Shown: in pieces, positions 1 through 61,859 of the stretch | Numbering within the stretch: position 1 is the stretch's first letter | How the letters are laid out: each line of letters starts with the position of its first letter | Origin: Candidatus Moraniibacteriota bacterium | GTDB lineage: Bacteria; Patescibacteriota; Minisyncoccia; Moranbacterales; GWC2-37-73 | DNA length: 64,000 nucleotides | Direction of reading: 5' to 3' | Assembly: GCA_013336225.1 (NCBI GenBank) | Contig: JAAXUC010000001.1 | Location: 35,949 to 99,948 of the forward strand | Position numbers and translations under genes: made by a program | The notes under the pieces: generated by a model | What the model was told of the DNA's origin: nothing | Databases searched by the model: none | Seen by the model: the letters and a program-made list of their open reading frames with translations, nothing else

Positions 1-432
1 GTGGCCATGCTTATTAAGACTGCCACTGACAACCGAAACAGGACTGGTAGCGAGGTGCGCAGCATTTTGACGAAAGCTGGCGGCAAGCCTGCGGCTGAAG
101 GCGGGGTTAAATTCATGTTTAAATTGGTGGGCAATATTGCCGTGGCTGTTGGCGAGCATGATCCGGCCGAAGTGGAAATGTCCATCATCGAAGCAGGCGC
201 TGAGGATATGCTTTTTGAAGGTGATACAGTCATTGTTTACACTAAAATTGAAGACTTGCAAAAAGTGAAGGAAAATCTGGATAAAGCAGGACTCACCGTG
301 GACGGCGCTGAATTGGTGTATGCAGCGGTGCGAAAAACCGAGCTGGATGGCGATTCAAGGCTTGATTATGAGAAACTTTTGGAAAAATTGGATGAGAATG
401 ACGACGTGCAGGAAATATACGACAATCTGTAA
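1..432 (+). CDS. YebC/PmpR family probable transcriptional regulator. C-terminal part only; the 5' end is cut by the window edge.
   Basis: The translation (MLIKTATDNRNRTGSEVRSILTKAGG...DDVQEIYDNL) matches the conserved C-terminal half of YebC/DUF28 proteins. Synteny with the downstream ruvC is the classic yebC-ruvC arrangement. Confidence 0.75.
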   Translation: MAMLIKTATDNRNRTGSEVRSILTKAGGKPAAEGGVKFMFKLVGNIAVAVGEHDPAEVEMSIIEAGAEDMLFEGDTVIVYTKIEDLQKVKENLDKAGLTVDGAELVYAAVRKTELDGDSRLDYEKLLEKLDENDDVQEIYDNL

Positions 433-439
433 TCTTGGG

Positions 440-587
440 GATTACGAATTGTAATTTCGAAGTATGAATTTTGAATTTCGAATGAAATCTTAATGATTTA
501 ATGTTTCAAACATTGGAAATTCAAAATTAAAAATTTATTCAAAATTCAAAATTCAAAATTAAAAATTCCCCTGAAACTCTGCGAGTC
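440..587. repeat. Palindromic intergenic heptamer-arm element, copy R1. Left arm is GAATTTY repeats, then a central AATGTTTCAAACATT hairpin, then a right arm of AAAATTC repeats.
   Basis: Seen directly in the sequence. The element is an imperfect long palindrome and is homologous to the copies at 1077-1229, 11764-11883 and 48124-48281. Confidence 0.6.
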
Positions 588-1073
588 ATGGGCATCGATC
601 CTGGGACGGCCATTGTTGGCTGGGCTATTTTGGATGAAACGAAAGGCTGCGTGACTGCAGTGGCCTATGGGCACATCACCACTTCTCCAAAAAAAACGAC
701 TGCCGAGCGACTTTTTGAGGTGGTGAAAGATTTGGAGCAGATAATTGAAAAATATAAGCCAAATGAGGCTGCCGTGGAGGATTTGTTCTTTTTCAAGAAT
801 GTGAAAACCGTGATGAAAGTGAGCCAAGCTCGGGGGTCAATACTCTTGACATTGGAGAGATTTTGTGTTAGCATATTTGAATACACACCACTGCAAGTCA
901 AACAAGCATTGACTGGCTATGGCAGAGCTGAAAAGAAGCAGATTCAATTGATGGTAAAGAATATTTTGAAACTAAAGGAAATTCCTAAGCCTGATGACAC
1001 CGCAGATGCAATCGCAATTGCACTGTGCCATATTAATTCAAGAAAGATGACTGCAGTGAAGAAAAGTTGCTGA
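588..1073 (+). CDS. ruvC: Crossover junction endodeoxyribonuclease RuvC
   Basis: The N-terminus MGIDPGTAIVGWAIL is the RuvC signature. Length (161 aa) fits, and it is syntenic with yebC upstream. Confidence 0.85.
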   Translation: MGIDPGTAIVGWAILDETKGCVTAVAYGHITTSPKKTTAERLFEVVKDLEQIIEKYKPNEAAVEDLFFFKNVKTVMKVSQARGSILLTLERFCVSIFEYTPLQVKQALTGYGRAEKKQIQLMVKNILKLKEIPKPDDTADAIAIALCHINSRKMTAVKKSC

Positions 1074-1076
1074 TAA

Positions 1077-1229
1077 AAAGTACAAATAGTGAGTTTTATT
1101 TTAATATTAATTTCGAATTTTTAATTCTGAATTTCGATTGAATTTTTAATGTTTCAAAATTGAATGTTTAAAGCATTTTGATTTGATTCAAAATTCAAAA
1201 TTGGAAATTCAAAATTTTTTATTAATGCT
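1077..1229. repeat. Palindromic intergenic heptamer-arm element, copy R2
   Basis: Same architecture as R1: AATTTCGAATTT arms, a central AATGTTT..AAACATT-like hairpin, and AAATTCAAAATT arms. Confidence 0.55.
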
Positions 1230-6463: not shown

Positions 6464-8836
6464 ATGAACTCAAATTTCATTTCACAAAGATTTAAAAGTA
6501 ACTCAGGAAAAAACAAATGGAAACTTGCTTGGAAAGCACTGGCAATTCTTTTTGGAGCTGGAATTGTGACTGTCATAGGCATATTTTTGTATTTTGCTAA
6601 AGATTTGCCAAGCGCAAATTCGGTGGATGCAAAATTGGTGGTGCAATCCACAAAAATTTATGATCGCACCGGCGAGCATCTTTTGTATGATGTGCATGGA
6701 GAAGAAAAGAGAACAGTGATTCCTTTCGATCAAATCCCGGACAATGTGAAATATGCAACCATTGCACTGGAAGATCAAACTTTTTATACGCATCATGGTG
6801 TGGATCCGAAATCAATCTTGCGTAGTGCGCTTAAAGATGTGATTAAGGGAGGAGCCGCGCAAGGTGGCAGCACCATAACTCAACAATTCATCAAGCAAAC
6901 TTTGCTCAGCAATGAAAAAACCATCACCAGAAAAATTAAGGAAGTCATTTTGGCAATTGAACTTGAACAGAAATATACCAAAGACGAGATTTTAAACATG
7001 TATTTGAATCAGATTCCGTATGGTTCAAGCGCCTATGGAGTGGAAGCTGCTGCACAGACATTTTTTGGGAAAGCAGCTAGAGATTTGACGTTAGCGGAAG
7101 CAGCTTTGTTGGCATCACTTCCAAATGCCCCAACCTATTATTCTCCTTTTGGCTCTCATACCGATGCCTTGGTAGGCAGAAAAAGTTCAGCTTTGCAGAA
7201 AATGGCTGATCAAGGCTATATCACGCAAGAGCAAGCAGATGAGGCAAAGAAGGTGGACATTTTGGCGGAAATAAATCCAAAACTAGACAACATATCAGCT
7301 CCACATTTTGTGATGTATGTGAAAGATTATTTGGAGCAAAAATATGGCGAGCAATCAGTGGAACAAGGAGGATTGAAGGTGTATACAACACTTGATTGGG
7401 ACAAGCAACAAGCAGCCGAAAAAGCAGTGAGTGAGGGTGCAGAAAAAAACGTTGCCAATAAAGCTTCCAATGCAGCACTGGTGGCTTCTGACCCAAGAAC
7501 AGGACAAATTCTGGCAATGGTTGGCTCCAAAAACTATTTTGACAAATCCATTGATGGACAGGTCAATGTTGCAATCCGTGATCGCCAGCCTGGTTCATCT
7601 TTCAAGCCATATGCATATCTGACAGCTTTCACAAAAGGATACACTCCGGAAACATTGATTTATGACGTGCCGACAAATTTTTCCACGGATGGTGAAAAAG
7701 ATTACACTCCACAAAACTATGACGGGAAGTTTCATGGGCCGCTGCAAATGAAAAATACGCTACCAATGTCACTCAACATTCCCGCTGTGAAAACTTTGTA
7801 TCTGGCTGGACTCAATGATGCCACAGCGCTAGCCAAAGGTTTGGGAATAACTGGGCTCAATGATCCATCGCGCTATGGCCTGTCTTTGGTTTTGGGTGGT
7901 GGCGAAGTTAAATTGATTGATCATGTGAATGCCTATGGTGCGTTGGCCGCTGGAGGAGTTCATCGGGATATCGCAATTATCATGAAGATCGAGGATAAGG
8001 ATGGAGCTGTGATTGAAAAATATAAAGACAATCCTGGCAATCGCGTGGTGGAAGAAAAGTATGTGGCTATGCTTGACTATATTATGTCTACCAATGAATT
8101 TAGAGCTCCGGTTTTCGGTGAAAACAGCCCGTTCAAATTTGTGGATCGTCCGGTGGCTGCAAAAACTGGAACAACCAATGAATTTCGTGATGGTTGGGCT
8201 ATGGGATATACGCCTTCAATCGCAGTTGGTGTTTGGGCTGGAAACAATGACAACACTTCCATGAAAGTCGGTGCCGATGGAATCGTGGTGGCAGCTCCAA
8301 TTTGGAGAAGTTTCATGAATTTCGCTTTGGGCAACAGCGCAATTGAACAATTTCCAAAATATGAAAAAGAAGATGCTGGAAAAGATGTGTTGAATGGAAA
8401 ATCTGATTCACAGAAAAATTTGAAAGTTTGTAAAATAGAAGTTAAGAAATACAAAGATAAGATTGGAAAATATTGTTTGGCCAATGACAGTTGTCCATCT
8501 GGCAGTGATGATAAAAAAGATTTTGCAACTGCTCACACCATTTTGTATTATGTGAACAAAGATGACCCACGAGGAGAAGCTCCAGCAAATCCGGAAAAAG
8601 ATCCTCAATTCAAGAACTGGGAAAGCGGCGTGCAAGAATGGTTCAAGGGCGAAAACAAAGATGATAATGGTGCCGCCCCAACAGAGGAGTGTAAGGAGGA
8701 ATATTTTCCTAAGCCTAAGGAGAAAGATTCCTCTGAAGAAAAACAAGCAGCTCCAACTTGCTCTGACGGTAGTCAAAATGGAGATGAAACAGGGGTGGAT
8801 TGTGGTGGGTCATGCAGTGCTTGTCTTATAATTTAA
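6464..8836 (+). CDS. Class A penicillin-binding protein (bifunctional transglycosylase/transpeptidase) with an unusual Cys-rich C-terminal extension
   Basis: It has an N-terminal TM helix, GT51 motifs (ALEDQTFYTHHGVD and STITQQ), a transpeptidase domain with SSFKP and KTGTT, and a C-terminal tail ending CSDGSQNGDETGVDCGGSCSACLII. Confidence 0.85.
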   Translation: MNSNFISQRFKSNSGKNKWKLAWKALAILFGAGIVTVIGIFLYFAKDLPSANSVDAKLVVQSTKIYDRTGEHLLYDVHGEEKRTVIPFDQIPDNVKYATIALEDQTFYTHHGVDPKSILRSALKDVIKGGAAQGGSTITQQFIKQTLLSNEKTITRKIKEVILAIELEQKYTKDEILNMYLNQIPYGSSAYGVEAAAQTFFGKAARDLTLAEAALLASLPNAPTYYSPFGSHTDALVGRKSSALQKMADQGYITQEQADEAKKVDILAEINPKLDNISAPHFVMYVKDYLEQKYGEQSVEQGGLKVYTTLDWDKQQAAEKAVSEGAEKNVANKASNAALVASDPRTGQILAMVGSKNYFDKSIDGQVNVAIRDRQPGSSFKPYAYLTAFTKGYTPETLIYDVPTNFSTDGEKDYTPQNYDGKFHGPLQMKNTLPMSLNIPAVKTLYLAGLNDATALAKGLGITGLNDPSRYGLSLVLGGGEVKLIDHVNAYGALAAGGVHRDIAIIMKIEDKDGAVIEKYKDNPGNRVVEEKYVAMLDYIMSTNEFRAPVFGENSPFKFVDRPVAAKTGTTNEFRDGWAMGYTPSIAVGVWAGNNDNTSMKVGADGIVVAAPIWRSFMNFALGNSAIEQFPKYEKEDAGKDVLNGKSDSQKNLKVCKIEVKKYKDKIGKYCLANDSCPSGSDDKKDFATAHTILYYVNKDDPRGEAPANPEKDPQFKNWESGVQEWFKGENKDDNGAAPTEECKEEYFPKPKEKDSSEEKQAAPTCSDGSQNGDETGVDCGGSCSACLII

Positions 8837-10692: not shown

Positions 10693-11763
10693 TTGGGTAT
10701 GGAAAAAAATAAGCAAAATATGGATTTCTTGCAGTCAGAGGCTTGGCGAAAATTTCAAGAAGCTGCTGGACGAAAAACCTCACATTTGGAAGGTGATGGT
10801 TTTTCAGTGAGCATCATTGAACATCAATTGCCGATTGTGGGGAAATATTTGTATGTACCAAAGGGACCAGTAGCCTCGCTTGAAGGCGAGGAATTTCCAA
10901 TTTCCAATAACCAATTTCCAATAAAATCTCAATTTCCAATTTCCAATGACCAAATAAAATGCGGAATGCGGAAATTGATTGATTTGGCTAAAAAGGAAAA
11001 TGCTGGTTGGATTCGGATTGAACCTGCTGACAAAAAAACATTGGAATCGATCAAGGAAAATATTTCAGAAAAAGTCATCAAAGCGCCACATGACATGCAG
11101 CCGCGGGAACTTTTTGTGTTGGACATCGCAAGGTCACCGGAGCAATTGCTGACTGAAATGAAAACCAAGACGCGCTACAACATTGGCATTGCGATGAAAA
11201 AAGGTGTTACGATCGATCATTCACAAACGGAAGCTGGTAAAAAGAATAAAGAATTGTATCTGCATGCATTTTTGCGACTGACCAAAGAGATGGCGGAGCG
11301 GCATGGAATTGCTGCGCACAGCGAGGAGTATTATCAAAAAATGGTTGAAAGTTTGCCCGACGAAATGCTGCGAATCTATGTGGCAAAATTTGAGGACAAA
11401 ATCATTGCAGCTAATCTGGTTCTATTTTATGGCGATACTGCGGTGTATCTGCATGGAGCTTCTGGCAGTCTGCACCGAAACTTGATGGCGCCATTTTCTT
11501 TGCAATGGCAAGCCATTTTGGACGCCAAAGAACTGGGCTACGCAAAATATGATTTTGGGGGCGTGCGTATACAAGATACAAAATACAAGATACAAAATAC
11601 AAACAAGTGGGAAGGGATTACCACCTTTAAAACGGGATTTTCGCCGAGAACAAAGCCGGTTGTGTTTCCTGGAAGTTATGATATTATCATAAATCCTCGC
11701 AAATATTGGGCATATCGTGGATTGCAGGCAGCGAAGTCGTTTGCGGTTAAATTTAGAAAATAA
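10693..11763 (+). CDS. FemAB-family peptidoglycan interpeptide-bridge aminoacyltransferase, carrying two in-frame heptamer-repeat insertions
   Basis: Conserved FemX/FemAB blocks are present (QSEAWRKFQ, KTRYNIGIAMKKG, FYGDTAVYLHGASGS, FKTGFSP). The tandem repeats at 10891-10955 (CCAATTT units) and 11568-11607 (ATACAAG/A units) are translated in frame. Confidence 0.75.
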   Translation: MGMEKNKQNMDFLQSEAWRKFQEAAGRKTSHLEGDGFSVSIIEHQLPIVGKYLYVPKGPVASLEGEEFPISNNQFPIKSQFPISNDQIKCGMRKLIDLAKKENAGWIRIEPADKKTLESIKENISEKVIKAPHDMQPRELFVLDIARSPEQLLTEMKTKTRYNIGIAMKKGVTIDHSQTEAGKKNKELYLHAFLRLTKEMAERHGIAAHSEEYYQKMVESLPDEMLRIYVAKFEDKIIAANLVLFYGDTAVYLHGASGSLHRNLMAPFSLQWQAILDAKELGYAKYDFGGVRIQDTKYKIQNTNKWEGITTFKTGFSPRTKPVVFPGSYDIIINPRKYWAYRGLQAAKSFAVKFRK

Positions 11764-11883
11764 TGTAATAAAAAATTTCGAATTTCCAATTTTGAATTTT
11801 GAATCAAATCTGAATGAATTAATGTTTAAAAATTTGAAACATTAGAAATTCATTCAAAATTCAAAATTCAAAATTTAAAATTA
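11764..11883. repeat. Palindromic intergenic heptamer-arm element, copy R3
   Basis: Arms of AATTTCGAATTTCCAATTTTGAATTTTGAA, a central AATGTTTAAAAATTTGAAACATT hairpin, and arms of AAATTCATTCAAAATTCAAAATTCAAAATT. Confidence 0.6.
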
Positions 11884-13230
11884 ATGCATAGAATCAAAAA
11901 AATTGTGCCCCAATCCATCAAGAACCTTTACCATTTGGCACAAGCTCTTACTGCTAATGTGATTTATGGTTTTCCATCTCGAAAAATAAAAGTGATTGGC
12001 ATCACTGGCACTGATGGCAAGACGACCACGGCGCAAATGATTGCGGGAATTTTGCAGGAAGCTGGAAAAAAAGTTGCCTTGGCTTCGACCATTAATTTTG
12101 TGATCAATGGAGTGGAAGAAAAGAATCTTTCACATTATACGACGGAATCAGCTTTCAAATTGCAAAAATTCATCAGACAAGCAGTTGGGGCAGGCTGCGA
12201 ATATTTGGTACTAGAAACTTCTTCGCACGCATTGGACCAACATCGCGTTTGGGGAGTGGAATATAAAGCTGCAGTTGTCACCAATGTGACCAGGGAACAT
12301 TTGGATTATCATGAAACCATGGAAAAATATCGAGCAGCTAAAAAAAGGCTTTTTGAAGTGGTAGAGAAAAATAAGGGAACAGTCATTGTTAACCTTGATA
12401 TGGAAAAACCGAAAGAGTTTTTGAATTTCAAAGTTAATAAAAAGTTTGCCTATACGACAAATAGTGAAAACCTGGATTCCCTGCCCACCGGCAGGCAGGC
12501 TGATTTTCGCGGGAATGACAAGGAAAGGGTCGGAATGATAAAAAGCGATGTGGAAATGATTCAGGCTGAGAATATCAGGCTTGGAATTGCTGGTTCTTCA
12601 TACGAAATACGAAATACGAAATACGAAATACATTTGCCAGGTGGATATAACATTGAGAATGCCCTTGCAGCATCGTGTGTGGCTCTTGGTGAGGGTGTTG
12701 GCATGGAAACGATTAAAGAGGCGCTGGCAAAAATCCGAGGCGTGGCGGGGCGAATGGAGGCCATAGAGAACGATCTGGGATTGCACATTTTCATTGATTT
12801 CGCACTGACCCCAAATGCCTTGGAAAAGCTTTATGCGGGGCTTTCTAGAGCCAAAAAATCGGGAGCAAGAATCATCGCAGTTTTCGGATCATGTGGCGAT
12901 CGCGATAAAGGCAAGCGTCCAATTATGGGCGAAGTTGTTTCGCGCTACACTGACATAATTGTTCTCACTAATGATGAACCATATCATGAAGATCCCCAAC
13001 AAATAATCGAAGAAATTGCAGTTGGAATTAAAAACAAAACCGAAAATCAGAATCTTTTCAGAATTGCTGATCGACGCTTGGCAATCGCCAAAGCTCTCGA
13101 GCTTGCCAAAGCTGATGACATAATCTGTATTACTGGCATGGGCAATTTTGAAACCATGGTGGTGGGGGATGAAAAAATTCCCTGGAATGATCGAAAAGTT
13201 GTCGAAGAAGAGTTGGCAAAAATTGCCTAA
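11884..13230 (+). CDS. murE: Mur ligase, MurE-like (UDP-N-acetylmuramoyl-L-alanyl-D-glutamate--diamino acid ligase), with a 7-aa in-frame repeat insertion
   Basis: GITGTDGKTTT is the P-loop, and the Mur ligase middle and C-terminal domains follow. A tandem ATACGAA x4 at 12599-12632 encodes YEIRNTKYEI just before the conserved HLPGG.N..NALAA block. Confidence 0.8.
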   Translation: MHRIKKIVPQSIKNLYHLAQALTANVIYGFPSRKIKVIGITGTDGKTTTAQMIAGILQEAGKKVALASTINFVINGVEEKNLSHYTTESAFKLQKFIRQAVGAGCEYLVLETSSHALDQHRVWGVEYKAAVVTNVTREHLDYHETMEKYRAAKKRLFEVVEKNKGTVIVNLDMEKPKEFLNFKVNKKFAYTTNSENLDSLPTGRQADFRGNDKERVGMIKSDVEMIQAENIRLGIAGSSYEIRNTKYEIHLPGGYNIENALAASCVALGEGVGMETIKEALAKIRGVAGRMEAIENDLGLHIFIDFALTPNALEKLYAGLSRAKKSGARIIAVFGSCGDRDKGKRPIMGEVVSRYTDIIVLTNDEPYHEDPQQIIEEIAVGIKNKTENQNLFRIADRRLAIAKALELAKADDIICITGMGNFETMVVGDEKIPWNDRKVVEEELAKIA

Positions 13231-19584: not shown

Positions 19585-19661
19585 GGCAGCTTTTTAGGCT
19601 TTAGCTTATCAACTTCTTAGGAAATACAAAATATAAAATTAACATGACTATGTCATGTTCT

Positions 19662-19730
19662 GGAGGGGTCGCAGTGTGGGCCGAATGCGAAGAACATGAG
19701 CATTCGGCGGGTTTCAAAAGAAACCCTGGC
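19662..19730 (+). other. tRNA-Ser-like 5' fragment (acceptor 5' strand GGAGGGG plus D-arm-like region), followed by a GAGCATTC-containing hairpin
   Basis: GGAGGGGTCGCAGTGTGGGCCGA parallels the 5' end of the intact tRNA-Ser (GGAGAGGTCGCATAGTGGTCGAG). It is preceded by the palindrome AACATGACTATGTCATGTT at 19641-19659. Confidence 0.4.
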
Positions 19731-19823
19731 AAAAATTCAAAACATTTTTTTGCTTGAGGCTTTGCCGAGTTTTAAATGATTTGAATTTTTGAGTGCACCT
19801 TCATTGTTAATTAGTTTCAAAGC

Positions 19824-19910: not shown

Positions 19911-19923
19911 CTTTGAAACTAAA

Positions 19924-20103
19924 AAGGTGGCATACTTTAAACGGTATCGGAGGCTGTAAATTATAAAGAGCAAATGATTTTGCTAATTATAATTTACAGC
20001 GCCAGAGCAATTTTTCGTCAGCAGACAAAAATGCGAGGCGGTGGCCAGACAAATTTTTGTGGCGACAAAAATTTAGTCGAGACCGAATCCTCTCCCCTCC
20101 GCC
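19924..20103 (+). pseudogene. tRNA-Ser 3' fragment spanning anticodon-loop 3' side, variable arm, T-arm and acceptor. It is interrupted in the T-loop by an insert of about 130 nt, and its acceptor strand CCCCTCC is complementary to the 5' fragment at 19662.
   Basis: AAAGGTGGCATACTTTAAACGGTATCGGAGG matches the intact tRNA at 28 of 31 positions. After the insert, the sequence resumes with GACCGAATCCTCTCCCCTCCGCC. Confidence 0.5.
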
Positions 20104-20120
20104 TTTAAAATTAAAAAATT

Positions 20121-22827: not shown

Positions 22828-24381
22828 ATGAAGAAAATGCAAAAGGGCGTTTCTCAATCGAAAGTGAAAGCTCGGAAGCTGAAAGCTCCCGCTGGCAAGG
22901 TTGTTTCAAAGACAATTGCCAAAAAAACTTCAAGCAAAAAAGTTGTCGCAAAGCCCGTCAAAAAGGGTAAGATTATTGCAGCTAAAACAAAGAAGGCCGC
23001 TGTAAAGTTGAAAAAAGTCGTTAAAGTTATTAAATCAAAAAAAATCGTGCAGAAAAAAAATCAGAAAATTCAGAAGAAAGCTGTTGCAAAGAAAGTTGTT
23101 GCAATCAAAAAGTCGCCAGTAAAAAAGGTGGCTGCTGCGAAAGCATTGCCAATCGTCAAAAAAGCAGCACCTAAAAAGGTGGTTGCAAAAGTGGCAGTTG
23201 CAGCGCCGAAGAAAAAGATTGCAAAAGTTGTCGTTGCTCCAAAGAAAAAAGTGACCGTGATTGAAAATGAAGACGGAGTCAAAAGCAAGAGTCAGATTAT
23301 TGCTGAGCTTATTGCGCGTGGAAAACAACGTGGTTTCGTGACAGAAGATGAAATCATTCATCTTATTCCAGAAGTTGAAGATGAATTGGATGAGCTTGAA
23401 AACTTGTATGAACAATTGGAAACAGCCGGAGTCAAAGTTGTTGTTTCTGATGATATGCTCAAGATTGATTCTGACAAAGAAGCTGAAATTTTTGAAAAAA
23501 GCAAAAAAGATAAGAATGCTGATTCCAATTTGATGGATGGAATTGAAGACAGCTCTTCTGATTTGGTGCAGATGTATTTGCGAGAAATTGGACGTGTGCC
23601 ACTGCTCAAATCCGAAGAAGAAATCAAACTTGCCAAAGCCAATGAAAAAGGGGATTTGGCAGCAAAACAGAAATTGACTGAAGCAAATCTTCGTTTGGTG
23701 GTAAGTATCGCCAAGAAATATGTGGGACGTTCACACAATCTTTCCTTGCTCGACTTGATTCAGGAAGGAAACATTGGACTTTTTCGCGCCGTGGAAAAAT
23801 TTGATTATCGCAAAGGTTTCAAATTTTCAACCTATGCAACTTGGTGGATTCGTCAAGCAATCACTCGCGCATTGGCCGATCAATCCCGCACAATTCGCAT
23901 TCCAGTGCACATGGTGGAAACAATCAATAAATATACGCAGATCACTCGAAGATTGGTGCAGGAATTGGGACGTGAACCTTTGCCTGAAGAAATTGCAGCT
24001 GAAATGAATTTGGAAGTCGACAAAATTCGTCACATCCAAAAGATTTCTCAAGAAACAGTTTCATTGGAAACTTCAGTGGGAGATTCTGATGATGACAGCG
24101 TGTTGGGAGATTTCATTGAAGACACTGAAACAGTGATGCCTCACCAAGTAGCTTCACGCAAACTGCTTAAAAATCATGTGGGCGAGGTTCTGAGAGAGTT
24201 GACACCACGTGAACAAAAGATTCTTAAAATTCGTTTTGGTCTTGAAGATGGAGTGACTCACACTTTGGAGGAGGTTGGAAAAGAATTTGGGGTGACGCGC
24301 GAACGTATTCGTCAGATTGAAGCCAAGGCTTTGGATAAGATTCGTCAGCATAAATCAATTGGAAAACTTAAGGATTACTAG
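22828..24381 (+). CDS. rpoD: RNA polymerase sigma-70 factor RpoD with a lysine/alanine/valine-rich histone-H1-like N-terminal tail of about 150 aa
   Basis: Sigma regions are recognisable: region 2 ([12 protein letters not shown]) and region 4 ([24 protein letters not shown]). The N-terminus is a low-complexity KKVVAK/AKK stretch. Confidence 0.9.
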
Positions 24382-36125: not shown

Positions 36126-37457
36126 TTACCTCTTTGTATTTGCAGCTGCTTTGGCCATATCCCTGAGCATTTTTTTATAATCCTTCCATTCATTTTCGGA
36201 CCAATTGGCTGGTTTTGCACTCAAAGTTGGTCCTCCTGGATGAGGATATCTGTATGGCGAGCCATAGGAACTGTTGAAAACATCATTGATCAACTCTGTG
36301 CCATTTTTGTCCAGCACGGTTTGAGTGAAATGTGCCTTGAGTGAGCCATCTGGTTGCCTATCTGTGGTATATGGTCCATCCACGGTGGTTTTTCTGCCAT
36401 CATCAGTTCCATAAAATGAGAACGTTAAAACTGTGCCTTCTATTTTTGCTTGAATGAGAATGTGATTCGGGGTGTTGTTCAAAAAGCGCAAATCTGGATT
36501 TGGAATATATATTGTTGAATCCATCCCTTGGGGATTGTAATAGGAAACGGGGTAGGCATGATTTCTGCGAGCGGTTATTTTTAAGCCGGAATAAATGGCG
36601 GCCCTGAAAGCTGTGCTGGAAACTTGGCAGACTCCACCACCAAATTCTGGTTCAGTGACATTATTTTTGATCACCAATTCAGGCAGATAGCCATGTTCAG
36701 CGTCAACTTCTCCAAGATTTTTCACAAAAGAAAATTCTTCTCCTGGTTTTATCAGCAGGCCATTGAAACGCGCCGTGGCAACTTTGATGTTGAAAACTCG
36801 ATTTTTTGGTGAGCCTTTGAAATTGGATGTGCCTTCGCCAATAAGGGCTGAAACCCCAAGGTTATTGATGTCGCCATAACTACCTTCTTTTTTGATGGAT
36901 TCAAATGGTAGAGAGATTTTTTCAGCAGTTGCTAAATCTTTTTTATTGAGGATATCGGTGATGGCCACTAAACTTTTTTCTATATCAAGTGCGACTCCTG
37001 GTTGGGGCTCTGAAAAAGTGACAACTTTTCCGTCTTCAACTTTAAATTTTGCATCAATGGAATCATGATTAACTTTGCGAGCCAAATCTTCCAAATATGT
37101 TTTGATGGCTTGAGTGTTTATGTTTGACTCCGAAGACAGTAATAGGTGACTGCGCTGGATTCTGGTCAAAGTGAGAGCACAAAAAAACTCATCCACTGGG
37201 CAGATTGTGGAATTTTCGATTTCGCTTTTAAGGTTTGGGGAAAGCGAAAAAGAAGTTGAGTGAGAAACCCAGCTATTCAGCAGGTCTTGAGAAATTGGTT
37301 CTGAATATTGATCGACAGCGATGGTTAGACTTGTTGCATTCATTGTTTCAGTTGCTGATTGCACATCTGAAGCTTGCGCAACCTGAGAGGTTACGAGCAG
37401 AAGTAGTATTAAAAAAGCTGTGTAAGAGTATTTTTGCATAGATTCAGCATACTGCAA
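36126..37457 (-). CDS. VanW-like domain secreted protein
   Basis: A signal peptide is present. The C-terminal region (GGGVCQVSSTAFRAAIYSGLKITARRNHAYPVSYY...G.DSTIY) fits the VanW-family pattern. Confidence 0.55.
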   Translation of the reverse strand: MQYAESMQKYSYTAFLILLLLVTSQVAQASDVQSATETMNATSLTIAVDQYSEPISQDLLNSWVSHSTSFSLSPNLKSEIENSTICPVDEFFCALTLTRIQRSHLLLSSESNINTQAIKTYLEDLARKVNHDSIDAKFKVEDGKVVTFSEPQPGVALDIEKSLVAITDILNKKDLATAEKISLPFESIKKEGSYGDINNLGVSALIGEGTSNFKGSPKNRVFNIKVATARFNGLLIKPGEEFSFVKNLGEVDAEHGYLPELVIKNNVTEPEFGGGVCQVSSTAFRAAIYSGLKITARRNHAYPVSYYNPQGMDSTIYIPNPDLRFLNNTPNHILIQAKIEGTVLTFSFYGTDDGRKTTVDGPYTTDRQPDGSLKAHFTQTVLDKNGTELINDVFNSSYGSPYRYPHPGGPTLSAKPANWSENEWKDYKKMLRDMAKAAANTKR

Positions 37458-37591
37458 TTTTTGGATTATATCAAGAGTGTTGCAGGTTTTAGTTTTTAGA
37501 ATTTTAATTTTTTCTAATCAAAAAAGAAGACACAGTGTCTCCTTTTCTGCAACTCTAAAGCCTAAAAGCTAAGAACTAAAAGCTGATTTAT

Positions 37592-38113
37592 TTAGAATCC
37601 TCGCACTTGAATGCGTTTAATTTTGGTGGTGTCTGCTTTCGGAAGACGAATTGTCAAGATTCCATTTTTAAGGGAGGCTTCTGCTTTGTCTGAGATGATG
37701 TCGACAGGAAGCACAACTGAGCGTGAAAAATGTCCCCAATAACATTCTTGGTAATAATAATTTTCCACACTGACAGCTTCTTCATTTTTGCGTTCACCTT
37801 TGATGGTCACCATGTCGTTGTTGATGGAAACATCAAGATCCTCGGGTTTCACTCCTGCGATTGTTGATTTGATCACAATTTCCATGTCAGTTTGATAGAC
37901 ATCGATGGTGAGTTGTCCTTCTGCATCGCTGGAAAAATTTTCTTCTTCAGCGTACATGTGTTGCTGATGCTGTTGTGGCTCAGCGCGCATGATCATTTCT
38001 GTTTCCTCTTCTTCTGCATATATTGGCATATTTGATTGTTCCTGACGTCCATCTGAATCAATCGAAGTTGATCCAGTTACACGCTCGAAAAATGATTTTT
38101 TTGTTTTTAGCAT
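37592..38113 (-). CDS. Hsp20/alpha-crystallin family small heat-shock protein with an N-terminal extension
   Basis: The C-terminal ACD ends with GILTIRLPK (compare IbpA GVLTVTLPK). The upstream block is ...DVYQTDMEIVIKSTIAGVKPEDLDV. Confidence 0.75.
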   Translation of the reverse strand: MLKTKKSFFERVTGSTSIDSDGRQEQSNMPIYAEEEETEMIMRAEPQQHQQHMYAEEENFSSDAEGQLTIDVYQTDMEIVIKSTIAGVKPEDLDVSINNDMVTIKGERKNEEAVSVENYYYQECYWGHFSRSVVLPVDIISDKAEASLKNGILTIRLPKADTTKIKRIQVRGF

Positions 38114-41995: not shown

Positions 41996-43228
41996 TTACT
42001 TCATTTTCAAATTTGCATGCGGTTGCATGGTTTTCCAAGCAGAAATTGATTTTTTTCTTTGCGCGTCTGACATTTTGTTCCAGCGAAAAGCAGCGGCAGC
42101 TGCAATCATGGCAGCATTGTCACCAGTCAAGGATAAGGCTGGGATAATATATGAAACTTCGGACAGATTTTTTTTAATAGCTTCGCCAAGTTGCGCGCGC
42201 AATTCTTTATTGGCACTGACGCCACCAGCCAGCAAAATTGTTTTTGGTTGGTGGGCTTCAGCTGCTTTGATGGTTTTTGCGACAAGCACATCCACAGTTG
42301 CTTGTTGAAATTCATGGCAGATTTCTGTAAGATATTTCTTATCTTTTAAAAGTTCTGGATGTTTTTTGGTTTCATATAGTACCGCAGTCTTGAGTCCGGA
42401 AAAAGAAAAATCATAATTTTTTTTGTTGAGCATTGGGCGTGGAAATTGTATTCCATATTTCGTATCTTGCATCCTATATGAGCCGTTTTGATTTCTGGTT
42501 TTTTCTTTTTGACATTTGTCATTTGGATCTTGAAATTTCTCAGCCATAGCTGAGACGACAGGTCCGCCCGGATAGCCAATTCCTAAAATGCGAGCGACTT
42601 TGTCAAAAGCCTCGCCAACTGCATCGTCCAAGGTTTGTCCGATGATTTCATATTGCAGATGATCTTTCATGAGAACGAGTTGGGTGTGACCACCAGACAC
42701 CACCAAGCATAAAATTGGGAATTTTATGCTTGGTGAATTTTGAATTTTGAATTTTGAATTTTGAACGATGGAAGATTCTTTTTTATTTGTAATTTCTGTA
42801 TTTCGAATTTGTTTGGAATTTAGAATTTGAGATTTAGGATTTACGCTAATGAAATTGGCGTAAATGTGCCCCTCAATATGATGAATTCCCAAAAGTGGCT
42901 TTTCCCAGAGATAGGAGAGGGTTTTGGCATAGCTAACCCCCACTAGCAGCGCTGGGATGAGCCCTGGGCCTTGAGTCACTGCAATGACATCAATGTGCTC
43001 TGGCGAAACTCCGGCCTCTCTCAGGGCAAAATCAAGCAAATGGTCGATATTTTTCACGTGCTCACGAGCGGCCAAGTTTGGCACAACTCCACCCCATTTG
43101 GCATGCAGTTTTATTTGCGAAGAAACCTCGCTGGCTAAAATTGCAAGTCCTTGAGCCGATGATTTCAAAATTGAAATTGCGGTGTCGTCGCAAGAAGTTT
43201 CAATGGAAAGTATTAGATTATTTGACAT
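41996..43228 (-). CDS. tsaD: tRNA N6-adenosine threonylcarbamoyltransferase TsaD (Kae1/Gcp family), carrying heptamer-repeat-derived in-frame insertions
   Basis: Conserved TsaD blocks are present (SIETSCDDTAISIL, GIHHIEGHI, VVSGGHTQL, GEAFDKVARILGIGYPGGP). An insertion of about 40 aa encoded by TTCAAAA/GAATTTT tandem repeats lies at 42733-42840, and a second QDTKYGIQ repeat-derived segment lies near 42405-42480. Confidence 0.85.
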   Translation of the reverse strand: MSNNLILSIETSCDDTAISILKSSAQGLAILASEVSSQIKLHAKWGGVVPNLAAREHVKNIDHLLDFALREAGVSPEHIDVIAVTQGPGLIPALLVGVSYAKTLSYLWEKPLLGIHHIEGHIYANFISVNPKSQILNSKQIRNTEITNKKESSIVQNSKFKIQNSPSIKFPILCLVVSGGHTQLVLMKDHLQYEIIGQTLDDAVGEAFDKVARILGIGYPGGPVVSAMAEKFQDPNDKCQKEKTRNQNGSYRMQDTKYGIQFPRPMLNKKNYDFSFSGLKTAVLYETKKHPELLKDKKYLTEICHEFQQATVDVLVAKTIKAAEAHQPKTILLAGGVSANKELRAQLGEAIKKNLSEVSYIIPALSLTGDNAAMIAAAAAFRWNKMSDAQRKKSISAWKTMQPHANLKMK

Positions 43229-43326: not shown

Positions 43327-44094
43327 ATGCAAGCGAAAATGAAAAGCCTGACAATCAAACCATCTTCTCGCAAAATTTTGCGAACTTCTGGTGTTAAACC
43401 TGGTCTCTTTAGGCGAAAAACTGATTTGCCATTCAGCATGTCGCAGCAGCTCATTTTGTCCCGAGAATTTTTTCTTGGAAATCATAACGATTCCTTGTAT
43501 CGCAGGAGCAGCGATTTGGATCGTGTTAAAAGTTTGAGCGACAATGAGCTCATTGTGGTTATCTGCACACAAAACAGGGAGGCATATAAAGAATTATTTT
43601 TGCGCTATCAGAAAAAACTTTTCACCTATATCTATCACCTGGTTGGAAACAGGGAAGAAACTGAGGACATCTTGCAAAATGTTTTTTCCAAGACATATAA
43701 AAGCATTAAGCACTTTGACACCTCACGAAAATTTTCTTCTTGGATCTATCGCATCGCGCACAATGAATCCGTGAATTATCTGAAACGTAAAAGCAAGCGC
43801 TACACTGTTTCCTGGGACGACATCACCACTAGTAAAGACAAATTAGACAGCGCTTCAAATGAGGAACTGCCAGAAGACCGAATGGGACATCAAGAAATTG
43901 TGAAACAAATGGATTTGGCCATGCTAAAAATTCCGCCAAAATATCAAGAAGTTTTGCGCTTGCGCTATTTCAATGAATATTCCTACGAAGAAATGGGAAA
44001 AATCTTGGGAAAACCCCTTAACACCGTGGGAACACTTATTAATAGAGCCAAAAAGAAATTGCTTGAAGTGGTGGAAAAAGACGAAAAAAAATAA
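43327..44094 (+). CDS. ECF-type RNA polymerase sigma factor (sigma-70 regions 2 and 4) with an N-terminal extension of about 80 aa
   Basis: Region 2 is ELFLRYQKKLFTYIYHLVGNREETEDILQNVF...WIYRIAHNESVNYLKRK, and region 4 is YQEVLRLRYFNEYSYEEMGKILGKPLNTVGTLINRAKKKL. Confidence 0.75.
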   Translation: MQAKMKSLTIKPSSRKILRTSGVKPGLFRRKTDLPFSMSQQLILSREFFLGNHNDSLYRRSSDLDRVKSLSDNELIVVICTQNREAYKELFLRYQKKLFTYIYHLVGNREETEDILQNVFSKTYKSIKHFDTSRKFSSWIYRIAHNESVNYLKRKSKRYTVSWDDITTSKDKLDSASNEELPEDRMGHQEIVKQMDLAMLKIPPKYQEVLRLRYFNEYSYEEMGKILGKPLNTVGTLINRAKKKLLEVVEKDEKK

Positions 44095-48123: not shown

Positions 48124-48281
48124 GTTTTTTTATTTGAGATTATTTCGTGCTTTTATTTGTATCTACAAATTTTTAATTTTTAATTTATAATTTTTAATCA
48201 AATCTAAATTTCTGAATTTTTAAATTAAGACATTGAAAATTCATTTCAAATTTCGAATTTCAAATTAAAAATTTTGGAAAT
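48124..48281. repeat. Palindromic intergenic heptamer-arm element, copy R4 (more degenerate)
   Basis: Tandem AATTTTTAATTT arms, a central hairpin, and a right arm of AATTTCGAATTTCAAATT, directly upstream of the GT4 start. Confidence 0.5.
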
Positions 48282-53667: not shown

Positions 53668-54633
53668 ATGAATTTTCAAATTGATGAGCTTGAAATTGAG
53701 TTGCTGCTTGATGTTGTGGGTAAAAGTGAAGATGGGCCAAGTGATGAGGAACTTGAAAGCATCGAGGGTGAGAATGAATTCTTGACTGAAGTTATCCTTA
53801 CGGAAGAAAGTGGGAGTGATATTGCCAGAAAATATCTTAATGAAATTGGAGCATGGCCAATCCTGACTAGAGAAGAAGAAATTGATTTGGCTCAGAAAAT
53901 TGAAAATGGTGACAGAGATGCATTTGAAAAATTTGTGAATTCAAATCTGAAATTGGTTGTGAAATGGGCCAAGCGTTACTGCGAAAATTATCATCTTAAA
54001 TTTCTAGACTGTGTTCAAGAAGGTAATTTCGGATTGATGAAAGGTGTTGAAAAATTTGATTGGAGGAGGGGGTTTAAATTTTCAACTTATGGCAGTTGGT
54101 GGATAAAGCAAGCAATTCAGCGAGCCATTAAGGATAATGACAGAACTATCCGTCTGCCTGTTCATATTAGTGAAATGTTATCAAAAATTTGGAAAGCAAG
54201 AAGGGAACTAGTGCTTTCCTTGGGATGTAATCCATCAACTTTGCAAATTGCAGAGCATATGGGTGTTCCAGAACAACTGGTCGTTAAGCTTTTTAGGAAA
54301 ATGTGTGACACAAAATCGCTGCAAGACCAACTTTCGAGTGATGATGATGGCACTGAGCTTGGCGATCTTTTGGAAGATAAAAATGGCTGTTGTCCTGAGG
54401 AGACTGCGCAAATAGTGCAGTTGGGTGATAAGCTCAGGCAATCTATTGATAGCTTACCAGAGGAACAGAGACAAGTTGTCATTTTCAAATGTATTGAAAA
54501 TTTACCAAACACTATAATTGCTGAAAGACTTGGCGTGAAACCTGGAAAAGTTAATGAGGTCTGGATACGAGCGAGAAAGAAGTTGATTGTATCAAAGGAT
54601 CTCAGAAAACTGTTGTCAGAATTTTGCAAATGA
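53668..54633 (+). CDS. Sigma-70 family RNA polymerase sigma factor (RpoD/SigA-like paralog with an acidic N-terminus)
   Basis: Region 1.2/2.1 (YLNEIGAWPILTREEEIDLAQKIENGD), region 2.4 (FSTYGSWWIKQAIQRAI), and region 4.2 (IIAERLGVKPGKVNEVWIRARKKL). Confidence 0.8.
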   Translation: MNFQIDELEIELLLDVVGKSEDGPSDEELESIEGENEFLTEVILTEESGSDIARKYLNEIGAWPILTREEEIDLAQKIENGDRDAFEKFVNSNLKLVVKWAKRYCENYHLKFLDCVQEGNFGLMKGVEKFDWRRGFKFSTYGSWWIKQAIQRAIKDNDRTIRLPVHISEMLSKIWKARRELVLSLGCNPSTLQIAEHMGVPEQLVVKLFRKMCDTKSLQDQLSSDDDGTELGDLLEDKNGCCPEETAQIVQLGDKLRQSIDSLPEEQRQVVIFKCIENLPNTIIAERLGVKPGKVNEVWIRARKKLIVSKDLRKLLSEFCK

Positions 54634-59470: not shown

Positions 59471-59495
59471 TTTTTTATTGCGTTTTAAAATGTAG

Positions 59496-59677
59496 GCGCT
59501 TAACTATTTTCCTTTTTGGCACGCTTTTGGATGAAATGCTCAATATCCAAAAGCTCCGATTCAGGAAAGGGGTCGGGAAAACCTGGGTTTTCCCGTGGCG
59601 GAATTATTCAAACCGAGGGGTTTGAAGGAGTGCGAAGCACGACGCATTGGGCCAAAAAGAAAAATAGTTTCGCTTAA
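59496..59677. repeat. MITE-like GC-rich element (family G) with terminal inverted repeats of about 26 nt, in the nrdA-nrdB spacer
   Basis: The left end GCGCTTAACTATTTTCCTTTTTGGCACGC is matched by the reverse complement of the right end, AGCGAAACTATTTTTCTTTTTGGCCC. The interior has GAAATGCTCAATATCC and GCTCCGATTC boxes shared with the tRNA-associated elements. Confidence 0.6.
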
Positions 59678-59770
59678 ATTGTTTAAAGTTAATGTTTGAA
59701 TCTAAGAATATATAAATTAAAAAACTTAATAATATAAATTTTTTTAAGAAATTATTGTTTGAGAACCCGT

Positions 59771-59839
59771 GTTTTATCTGAAATTTTTTGTCCCTTGCGC
59801 GTTGTCGCGTGTGACCACAAAAAATTTCAGCTATAAAAC
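59771..59839. promoter_or_regulatory. Long inverted repeat (23-bp arms) in the nrdA-nrdB spacer enclosing GC-rich CCCTTGCGCGTTGTCGCGTGTGACC. Possibly an attenuator or operator.
   Basis: GTTTTATCTGAAATTTTTTGT is matched by ACAAAAAATTTCAGCTATAAAAC at 22 of 23 positions. Confidence 0.5.
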
Positions 59840-59895
59840 AGGGGATTTGAGTTTAATTTCGCAGAAAAAATTTCATATTATTAAGTTTCACGCAT

Positions 59896-61538: not shown

Positions 61539-61558
61539 AGAATTATTTCAGTATTTTA

Positions 61559-61590
61559 AAACAGCCTCTTGCGAGGCTGTTTTTTTTTGG
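61559..61590 (+). terminator. Rho-independent terminator
   Basis: AAAACAGCCTCTTGCGAGGCTGTTTTTTTTTGG. Confidence 0.7.
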
Positions 61591-61633
61591 TATGCGAAAT
61601 ACAGTGTTTTGAAAAAAGTGAGTAAAATTTTTT

Positions 61634-61810
61634 GATTTGCCTGTTTCCTTTTTCGGCACGCTCGCAATTGAGGAACTATTGTTTAGCGGAGTGAGCGAAA
61701 TGAAATAGTAATTTCATTTCCGAACGAGCGACAACAACAAGCTTGCTTATAATTGCTTCGCTAAGACCTCGCTGTCGCTCGCTATTGCCTCAAAAGAAAA
61801 CAGCCAAATC
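61634..61810. repeat. MITE-like GC-rich element (family G), the longest copy. It shares both ends with 34010-34115 and has an internal insertion of about 70 nt carrying a CGCTCGTTCGGAAATGAAA hairpin motif.
   Basis: TTTCCTTTTTCGGCACGCTCGCA ... GCTTCGCTAAGACCTCGCTGTCGCTCGCTATTGCCTCAAAAGAAAACAGCC, with imperfect terminal inverted repeats GATTTGCCTGTTTCC / GAAAACAGCCAAATC. Confidence 0.6.
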
Positions 61811-61859
61811 AAAAAGAAATTTTCAAAGCATGTATTTCGTGTGATCAATTTCTGTTTTT

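Follow-up and report, generated by a model that had tools for sequence, protein, structure and literature searches.

Heptanucleotide repeats and intergenic palindromic repeats are, as kinds of sequence, already known in bacteria. Mazel et al. reportedly described the heptanucleotide short tandemly repeated repetitive (STRR) sequences of cyanobacteria in 1990, Ogata et al. are said to have found in 2000 that Rickettsia palindromic elements (RPE) lie both in spacers and in frame in protein genes, and the small dispersed repeats (SDR) of Nostoc were reportedly the subject of Elhai et al. in 2008. Here we analyze a 64,000-nt stretch of contig JAAXUC010000001.1 from a Candidatus Moraniibacteriota bacterium (hereafter the window, 64 kb), in which four intergenic spacers hold copies of an imperfect palindrome with arms of 7-nt units. 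The tandem units, the excess of period 7 and the intergenic enrichment are shared with STRR-type repeats; unlike these, the window elements carry two mirror-image arms around a common core and form a dispersed homologous family. As far as we could find, neither such an architecture in a candidate-phyla-radiation lineage, nor hot-spot turnover at fixed junctions, nor an inverted-flank footprint has been described earlier.

In many bacteria, heptanucleotide units make up the most abundant class of long simple-sequence repeats, and polymerase slippage has been proposed as their source, according to those findings of Mrazek 2007 that are quoted in PMC4679880 and PMC4692102; the origin and function of these repeats are not established (PMC4679880, PMC4692102). 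The TAACTGA repeats of Beggiatoaceae, Cyanobacteria and Bacteroidetes (MacGregor 2015, PMC4679880) resemble the window elements in occupying spacers just before starts, in their patchy distribution, with junctions empty in close relatives, in their 7-nt-step indels and in their unexplained mechanism. They are, however, direct repeats, with one indirect repeat in 169 sets, whereas the window elements are palindromic composites, and the comparative data presented here do not favor a post-transcriptional regulator such as the one proposed in that paper. The GGGAATC/GGGGAYT repeats of Xanthomonas and Nostoc (Rehm et al. 2015, PMC4692102) are likewise intergenic heptamer arrays, some of them in inverted pairs (stem-loops, cruciforms), and both their length and their sequence vary extensively among close relatives. 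These are G-rich and quadruplex-forming, unlike the window family, which is AT-rich and devoid of G-runs and in which inverted pairing is the rule. As dispersed imperfect palindromes of ~100-150 nt that occupy transcribed spacers and are polymorphic for presence/absence, the elements also recall REPINs (PMC3116915), the MITE-like ERIC/IRU of enterobacteria and the Correia elements of Neisseria, but their arms are microsatellites rather than unique terminal inverted repeats, and no target-site duplication, transposase or REP-associated tyrosine transposase (RAYT) was found in the loci covered here.

Four copies of one dispersed palindromic family

A preliminary description of the window had taken four intergenic regions to be the same composite palindrome. 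Our analysis confirms this, although the extents proposed for them are simply those of the whole intergenic spacers (G+C 0.15-0.25; Table 1). The element itself measures ~110 nt and comprises three sections, namely a left T-rich NAATTTY heptamer array, a non-periodic core with a small hairpin, which reads GAATSAAATCTNAATGAWTTAATGTTT..AAACATTRGAAATTCA in the better-preserved copies, and a right, mirrored A-rich RAAATTN array. Tandem Repeats Finder rows of period 7 are present in all four copies, and self-identity at lag 7 reaches 0.51-0.58 in the four spacers versus 0.18-0.44 (mostly <0.4) in the other 49 spacers of at least 40 nt. The heptamer-pair pattern GAATTTYGAATTT, with up to one mismatch allowed, matched 21 times against 2.46 expected, a number reached by 0/100 shuffles.

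A profile built from relatives' sequences only, and hence free of window sequences, recovered all four copies, at E-values from 1.8e-20 (copy 1) to 1.1e-8 (copy 4), and placed copy 2 in the opposite orientation (47.4 bits on the minus strand versus 32.9 bits on the plus strand). A core-only profile without the arms still retrieved the four copies, at E = 3.5e-9, 3.1e-5, 0.003 and 0.029. This shared core identifies the four regions as homologous copies of one dispersed family with heptamer arms, and not as four independent microsatellites. The null explanation set against the palindromes beforehand, simple AT-rich microsatellite drift, is accordingly right in that heptamer slippage contributes, but the palindromic layout and the common core are genuine. 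Two details of the initial picture do not hold for the degenerate copy 4: its left arm reads TAATTTT/AAATTTT instead of GAATTTC/GAATTTT, and the central AATGTTT..AAACATT hairpin is missing from it. The nearest relative of copy 4 is an element at a non-orthologous site, the femAB-murE junction of relative L136 (81%). Overall, the paralogous copies are 77-83% identical and no closer to each other than to orthologues in other genomes, which speaks against a recent burst of copying.

The elements show fold z-scores of -2.3 (copy 4) to -8.1, and their stems are 13-19% G+C. If transcribed, each would be predicted to fold as an AU-rich stem of roughly 36-44 pairs.

The unit length is itself a trait of the lineage. 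The window contains 13 arrays of period 7 and 0 of periods 6, 8 and 9, and in 545 kb of non-redundant Moranbacteria sequence 95 arrays of period 7 compare with 17, 6 and 7 of periods 6, 8 and 9, respectively. The tandem 7-nt units, in at least three copies and in excess over the neighboring periods, are those of STRR-type repeats. Fifty-three of the 95 arrays are intergenic, 35 lie inside open reading frames (ORFs) and 7 at gene edges; when neighboring arrays were paired (n=20), 10 pairs were inverted with matching units and 4 were direct. Beyond this clade, the exact array ATTCAAAATTCAAAATTNNAAATT occurs at >120 loci of GTDB species representatives, including many Nostocales, Bacteroidota, Acidobacteriota, Verrucomicrobiota and several Patescibacteria; in Patescibacteria outside this clade, the array is often in frame within genes. 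Only ~10% of AAAATTC arrays across phyla have an inverted partner, and AAAATTC-armed palindromes with unrelated centers were found in Bacteroidales, Saccharibacteria, Verrucomicrobia and Acidobacteria.

Turnover at orthologous junctions

Syntenic loci of relatives (designated by L-numbers) were gathered through RuvC homologues, which at 74-94% identity to the window RuvC identify Candidatus Moranbacteria/Moraniibacteriota, and through one metagenome scan; no protein identical to the window RuvC was on record. Relatedness was expressed as ruvC nucleotide distance, with L126, L127, L128 and L131 left out of the distances, and three junctions could be compared, that is, yebC-ruvC, ruvC-7TM and femAB-murE. 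The repeat types found at yebC-ruvC were labeled A to E, A being that of the window.

Family A is present in L139/L140, L142, L136/L188, L146 and L129, and copy 1 aligns over its whole length with its orthologues in L139, L142, L136, L146 and L129 at 80% mean column identity. The same junction is filled by family B (CAAAATC...GGATTTT, A-rich arm first) in L182, L134, L133, L144, L145, L150 and L127, by family C (TTTCAAT/GAAAATT arms and a core hairpin resembling that of A) in L132 and L138, by family D (GTATTTN...NAAATAC) in L121/L135/L137, L143, L148/L149, L128 and L131, and by type E (AAAATGC...GCATTTT) in L126. It is empty in L124/L125, L141 and L147, where the genes abut or overlap and L147 retains no more than a small flank hairpin. 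Families usually differ even between nearest ruvC neighbors, as for L132 (C) and L182 (B) at 8.9%, L135 (D) and L136 (A) at 8.0%, and L134 (B) and L135 (D) at 8.2%, while family A spans genomes up to 28% apart. At the ruvC-7TM junction, copy 2 has orthologues in L139, with an extra GC-rich mini-hairpin nested inside the right arm, and in L131, whose left arm is 14 nt (two heptamers) shorter, the unit-step length variation known from STRR-type repeats; in further relatives, this junction holds another palindrome or a spacer of ~15-45 nt. The femAB-murE spacer measures 6-12 nt in L124 (6 nt, GAATTT), L127 and L131, and is filled in L136 and L182 by the element nearest copy 4. The 200 nt upstream of murE, this element included, are identical in L136 and L182 (see L136:19733-19846 and L182:19933-20046), yet the repeat families of the two differ at each of the ruvC junctions, a pattern suggestive of mosaic recombination between these populations.

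Collectively, junctions are empty or carry palindromes of other units even in close relatives (8-18% distance), and entire spacers that separate housekeeping genes act as hot spots at which heptamer palindromes recur. The comparison of loci shows the elements to be dispensable and turned over on a time-scale of ~10% ruvC divergence.

These data bear on a shared operator/promoter architecture, put forward in the preliminary description, in which a repeat-recognizing DNA-binding protein would co-regulate ruvC, the 7TM gene, murE and GT4. Iterated short units in inverted symmetry do resemble multi-site operators, and all four copies stand directly upstream of a plus-strand start, as had been noted. 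That position is nonetheless uninformative, because in a compact genome any spacer between same-direction genes precedes a start. Whether a junction is empty, and which unit it holds, is not predicted by ruvC relatedness, and this speaks against a conserved operator or promoter; the same genes do without the element or use a different unit in close relatives. As far as sequence alone can tell, such differing units at one site also argue against a specific conserved repeat-binding protein. Furthermore, orientation varies, identical units occur inside ORFs and in unrelated phyla, and promoter-like sites were not enriched across the scan (40 versus 37.6 in shuffled sequence). Within the elements, these are just weak 9/12 matches; the TTCAAA-17-TAAAAT of copy 3 has a -10-like match that ends 3 nt before the ATG, too near to serve that start. 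The operator/promoter reading is largely refuted by the comparative data, and we hold it to be highly improbable.

Inverted copies of host sequence at the boundaries

The boundaries of copy 1 take in the ends of both neighboring genes. The final 13 nt of yebC, which take in its stop codon, read ACAATCTGTAATC, and GATTACGAATTGT, just downstream, is their near-perfect reverse complement. Most of the filled yebC-ruvC sites that we checked share this arrangement, with the last 10-15 nt of yebC followed by a 3-8-nt loop and the reverse complement, each in a lineage-specific sequence: AATCTATGATAATC-TTT-GATTATCATAGATT in L136, ACAATTTGTAAGC...GCTTACAAATTGT in L132 and L182, and GAAATTTTTGATAAC...GTTATCAAAAATTTC in L149, with further inverted copies in L143, L138, L145, L126 and L129. 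The downstream copy varies in step with the yebC sequence of each lineage, and the hairpin is missing from the empty sites of L124, L141 and L147.

At the opposite boundary, a second hairpin pairs the end of the element with the start of ruvC. L136 has a perfect 12-bp stem here and L146 one of 12 pairs with 1 mismatch, and a reverse-complement copy of the ruvC start also adjoins family D (L149, L143). Compensatory changes in this stem (alignment columns 179/185; UA 3, CG 2, GC 1) couple the third position of a Thr codon to that of an Arg codon (T-A, G-C, C-G) and are synonymous. The annotated N-terminus of RuvC varies in the same region (window 588; P0001, P0002, P0006, P0012), some relatives being extended by 15-19 residues (MHKQKDILKN...), and the annotated extension of P0001 is partly read from the repeat arm (MKIPNTKYQIPDT, KIPNTKYQIPDT). 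As separate observations, the window RuvC has Met in place of the conserved Leu of LRVLGIDPG, and in L136 ruvC (L136:10001) the stretch from the preceding stop to the conserved residues contains no ATG, GTG or TTG, which leaves only ATT.

Inverted copies are also found inside genes, where the occurrence of the same heptamer unit, claimed earlier, was borne out by identical units within ORFs and by weaker, in-frame relatives of the family in tsaD and femAB. The tsaD insertion is bounded on one side by native CACCAAGCATAAAATT, GGG and the reverse complement AATTTTATGCTTGGTG, a perfect 16-bp hairpin of which one arm encodes native FPILCLV and the other belongs to the insert; (AATTTTG) x 4.6 and degenerate heptamers follow, and ATTTACGCTAAT, GAA and ATTGGCGTAAAT close the far end with 12 pairs and 1 mismatch. 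The insert, of ~35 residues, is missing from Escherichia coli TsaD (4ydu; query residues 133-167 unaligned), and the Pfam TsaD model matches the window protein in two stretches. A second insertion relative to E. coli TsaD (window 42455-42538, residues ~231-258, KFQDPNDKCQKEKTRNQNGSYRMQDTKY) has a heptamer-type QDTKY motif. In femAB, the array at 10889..10978 is the reverse complement of the adjoining native GGAATGCGGAAATTGA (10929-10944 versus 10963-10978, 81%) and is missing from the FemAB of L124, L131, L127 and L128. At the same site, L134 has a full palindromic element in frame, followed by ATTTCTTCGCTAA-CTGAT-TTAGCGAAGAAAT, in which the second arm corresponds to native LAKK codons and ISSLT replaces RKLID-type sequence at the same length, whereas in L136 femAB CTCGCAATAAAACAT-AAT-GTTTTAGTGCGAG adjoins a (CAATTTC)n array. 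The perfect murE array has the length of the matching stretch in relatives, which is non-repetitive in L131 (18647-18760) and a degenerate array in L124 (19331-19444), so it looks like a product of overwriting, without net indel, rather than of insertion. RPE similarly combine spacer palindromes with in-frame copies in essential genes, here tsaD and femAB, a resemblance in function only; they belong to an unrelated organism with unrelated sequence and are not known to consist of tandem heptamers.

The array unit of L144, ATCAAGA, is identical to the final 7 nt of the inverted copy that it adjoins, which, together with the window femAB array being the reverse complement of its native neighbor, suggests local seeding of arrays. 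More generally, tight hairpins, scored with a home-made detector that yields small counts, adjoin 36/95 arrays of the Moranbacteria sample, against ~11 expected, and 4/28 coding-interior arrays, against 0.43 expected (Poisson P ~0.001). The enrichment recurs at cyanobacterial loci (15 versus 4.4 expected) and in other phyla (24 versus 4.9), and the hairpin-array association thus reaches beyond Patescibacteria. Two individual hairpins were seen repeatedly: ACAGACGCGATTAATCGCGTCTCT adjoins heptamer arrays in three Nostocales loci (L007:7361-7384, L068:2656-2679, L080:4068-4093), and CCCTCCCCTAAGTTAGGGGAGGG does so twice in one Bacteroidales contig (Tidjanibacter; L008:3640-3666, 7184-7206).

An origin of the inverted copies in multiple displacement amplification (MDA) or assembly chimeras was rejected because the structures recur, in frame, across independent assemblies of different projects. 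Inverted flank copies at the boundaries point to an origin in replication or repair rather than in cut-and-paste transposition.

Folding and possible RNA functions

The hairpins could instead mark structured elements acting on RNA, as RNase III sites, mRNA stabilizers, read-through attenuators or start-codon occluders, with pairing under selection. In keeping with this, all elements lie between same-direction genes and end 0-18 nt before the next start codon, folding is significant, family A is kept at yebC-ruvC in at least six lineages (80% column identity), its right arm being highly conserved, the ruvC-start hairpin has undergone compensatory synonymous changes, and MacGregor proposed translational roles for TAACTGA repeats upstream of starts (PMC4679880). 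The fold and covariance analysis foreseen in the preliminary description thus came out mixed, with significant folding and arms nearly without covariation: over six orthologues the covariation term is +0.11 kcal/mol and most arm pairs are invariant A-U, which leaves this particular test uninformative. Both strands fold about equally, with G-U pairs unbiased to the transcribed strand, and in older copies (L136, L129, copy 4) the arms have slipped out of register (z = -2.3 to -3.1). Close relatives manage without the elements, with genes abutting or overlapping, and related sequences are found within genes, where roles of this kind would be meaningless; a terminator role is excluded for the inverted flank copies within tsaD and femAB.

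No terminator-like site was called within 440-587, 1077-1229 or 11764-11883, a terminator-type center (G+C-rich stem, T run) being confined to a fifth heptamer-armed element at 37482-37587; terminator-like sites were no commoner in the scan than in shuffled sequence, and an Rfam scan of the window returned 8 tRNAs only. Shine-Dalgarno-like motifs were detected within 25 nt upstream of the start in only 11/58 genes of the whole window, so the four genes downstream of the copies are not special in lacking one. On balance, a function at the RNA level seems quite unlikely to explain the elements.

Tests of mobility

Among the three initial proposals, a selfish repeat resembling miniature inverted-repeat transposable elements (MITEs) comes closest to the data. 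As classical MITEs, the heptamer arms would be multi-site platforms for a transposase encoded elsewhere, and the families would be different MITEs in a few permissive spacers. The elements do have terminal inverted repeats, with arms of 42-54 nt that are 74-81% complementary, but as microsatellite arrays instead of unique termini. Dispersed homologous copies with a common core, presence/absence polymorphism at orthologous sites and the copy-4-like subfamily at a non-orthologous site in L136/L182 likewise agree with mobility, as does the combination of AAAATTC arms with unrelated centers in other phyla, that is, conserved ends and a variable middle. Yet filled/empty comparisons at the three junctions, inspected by eye, revealed no direct target-site duplication; no transposase, integrase or reverse transcriptase was found among the ~60 window ORFs (64 kb of genome), nor any transposase in the Pfam gene lists of the relatives' loci. 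Besides, the 77-83% identity of paralogues gives no sign of recent bursts, the boundaries are ragged and in part bear reverse-complement host copies that known transposition chemistries do not make, and arrays also arise from local seeds, as in L144. We consider transposition as classical MITEs unlikely.

Other classes of arrays were discarded. REP/REPIN sequences, which consist of REP units of 20-40 nt in doublets that flank the gene for a RAYT (Y1 transposase), were rejected given AT-rich heptamer arrays with no REP-like unit, the GTAG/CGTC head not having been formally searched, and no Y1_Tnp-type protein is among the window proteins. TIGR and CRISPR arrays have repeat-spacer periods of ~30-70 nt (36 nt for TIGR) next to a Cas or Tas gene; here the period is 7 nt, without spacers, and the neighbors are yebC, ruvC, murE and the GT4 gene. 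Integron attC-like sites, whose core sites were not searched, were rejected because the flanking genes are syntenic housekeeping genes. As for a phage vector, nhmmer with the family model alone found no element in viral loci, 53 viral contigs bearing an AAAATTC array included, and five viral-contig matches to the family pattern are chance hits in coding DNA.

A proposed origin by template switching and heptamer slippage

We favor, at a probability of about 0.5, the interpretation that the elements are labile, near-neutral palindromic repeats generated by template switching and 7-nt slippage and spread by microhomology copying. Template-switch mutations create or extend perfect inverted repeats in one event (PMC8794818, PMC13100816, PMC8604942). 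Fold-back ("snap-back") synthesis during replication or repair would first copy neighboring sequence in reverse complement, producing stems that can take in host gene ends. Slipped-strand reiteration in 7-nt steps would then build and resize the arms, and microhomology between heptamer arrays may let the polymerase jump to arrays elsewhere and copy their cores, a route that would disperse the family without transposase or target-site duplication. Palindrome fragility, in turn, would expose the same spacers to repeated events and leave different families in close relatives. Products would persist where they can be tolerated, that is, in intergenic spacers and, when in frame, in protein surface loops, any effect on mRNA processing or translation being secondary. 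The published template-switch cases (PMC8794818, PMC13100816, PMC8604942) match these elements in their one-step stems and in same-length overwriting, as in L134 femAB and the murE array; they differ in being isolated hairpins, and as far as we could find, no coupling of such events to 7-nt reiteration and to a dispersed family has been reported.

Several points weigh against this interpretation. Copies 2, 3 and 4 bear no clear inverted-flank signature by eye, so this signature does not mark every copy; selection, for instance for termination or translational control, could keep the hairpins at the yebC end and the ruvC start; and the hairpin-array enrichment comes from small counts. We infer dispersal through microhomology only from the shared core and the missing hallmarks of transposition, and the search for a transposase covered just the 64 kb of this genome that make up the window. 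No de novo event was observed, and the interpretation does not account for the step of 7 nt. Finally, heptamer arrays did not change in length between strain pairs 99.8-100% identical over 11-20 kb, which indicates that the building process is slow or episodic; indels of 28 and 33 nt between such near-identical strains lie within ordinary coding regions and could reflect either artefacts of assembly or deletions.

A more far-reaching and rather doubtful possibility is that the palindromes are products of a distinct mutational process, combining flank fold-back copying, 7-nt reiteration and microhomology bridging, in reduced genomes and possibly in many phyla. Such a process, if real, would provide an origin for the bacterial heptanucleotide excess (STRR, TAACTGA, GGGAATC) and would explain both the association with small hairpins and the in-frame "heptamer peptides" of essential proteins, and the responsible polymerase, or the missing repair function, could then be sought among the few genes of the ~1-Mb candidate-phyla-radiation genomes. 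Should the elements be neutral junk, an attractive but wrong "shared operator" reading is still removed. In either case, the heptamer-repeat phenomenon now extends to candidate-phyla-radiation bacteria, whose compact synteny eases filled/empty comparison, and the reverse-complement host copies at boundaries constitute a testable footprint of template switching. In practice, repeat arms can mislead gene callers, as in the RuvC N-terminal extensions, and the elements put low-complexity peptides into essential enzymes (TsaD, FemAB).

Table 1. Heptamer-armed palindromes, boundary hairpins and coding arrays of the window.
Feature	Position	Strand	Spacer	nhmmer limits	Arms (length, complementarity)	Description
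Copy 1, left-boundary hairpin	422..452					yebC 3' end ACAATCTGTAATC (422-434), loop TTGGG, GATTACGAATTGT (440-452)
Copy 1, yebC-ruvC spacer	453..568		433-587	450-569	453-494 / 526-567 (42 nt, 81%)	left T-rich arm 453-483, core 484-516, right A-rich arm 517-568
Copy 1, core hairpin	500-514					AATGTTTCAAACATT
Copy 1, right-boundary hairpin	568..592	+				CCCCTGAAACTC, loop TGC, GAGTCATGGG; 3' half of GAGTCATGGG is the ruvC start
Copy 2, ruvC-7TM spacer	1103..1222		1074-1229	1106-1217	1109-1158 / 1167-1216 (50 nt, 74%)	reversed relative to copies 1 and 3
Copy 3, femAB-murE spacer	11767..11885		11764-11883	11773-11882	11774-11827 / 11829-11882 (54 nt, 74%)	core hairpin AATGTTTAAAAATTTGAAACATT; E = 2e-15; right arm adjoins murE ATG at 11884
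Copy 4, alpha/beta-hydrolase to GT4 spacer	48162..48276		48124-48281	48164-48274	48167-48219 / 48222-48274 (53 nt, 75%)	degenerate
Fifth heptamer-armed palindrome	37482..37587					unit TTTTAGN ... CTAAAAG; between minus-strand genes HSP20 and VanW
tsaD in-frame insertion related to the family	42701..42865	-				E = 0.001
femAB in-frame heptamer insertion	10889..10978	+				CAATTTCC units, protein EEFPISNNQFPIKSQFPISNDQ
femAB (ATACAAR) x 5 array	11569..11603	+				RIQDTKYKIQNT
murE perfect (ATACGAA) x 4.6 array	12600..12631	+				protein YEIRNTKYEI

Further elements and features of the window

The fifth palindrome has a terminator-like hairpin, GAGACAC..GTGTCTC, at its center, with A and T runs on its flanks, and combines a lag-7 self-identity of 0.44 with a fold z-score of -4.2 and a period-7 array at 37557-37584.

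A 21-nt GC-rich mini-hairpin, CAGGCTTGCCTGCCGAAGAGG, with CAGG on both sides, is present in frame at a gene start in L121 (20245-20265) and missing from the 99.8% identical L122. Related CCTGCC..GGCAGG hairpins lie in the window at 12480-12499, inside a 14-residue MurE insert (LPTGRQA), in the right arm of the L139 ruvC-7TM element, and at L139:1059-1074, L148:702-721, L149:1538-1557 and L167:2883-2902. The mini-hairpin is a separate small element, distinct from the ~110-nt palindrome. In appearance it is a tiny mobile or templated element reminiscent of the Nostoc SDR; it is polymorphic between near-identical strains, lies within a heptamer arm and also occurs in murE, where it is in frame.

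The window is ~40% G+C, with positive GC skew throughout and tightly packed genes, predominantly on the plus strand. Pfam matches comprise YebC, RuvC, the 7TM_transglut protein, ATP-grasp enzymes, PBP1, RuvA, FemAB, MurE and TsaD, as well as ValRS, DnaG, RpoD, pyruvate kinase and ribonucleotide reductase, that is, housekeeping functions typical of candidate-phyla-radiation bacteria. Several long spacers (59471-59895, 19585-19823, 19912-20120, 33551-34201 and 61539-61859) have strongly negative predicted folding energies, among them -142.7 kcal/mol for the 425-nt spacer between two ribonucleotide reductase genes, and 33551-34201 represents 651 nt devoid of ORFs. Rfam had no match at gathering score in these spacers, which could hold structured RNAs or other repeat families.

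TATAAT-like boxes are located 4-8 nt before several starts, for example upstream of 36126-37457 and 37592-38113 (minus strand), a spacing that suggests frequent leaderless or very short-leader mRNAs in the window. Lastly, three sigma-70 family genes (22828-24381, 43327-44094 and 53668-54633) are encoded in these 64 kb of a reduced genome; in the RpoD-like one, a long N-terminal stretch of ~150 residues precedes region 1.1.

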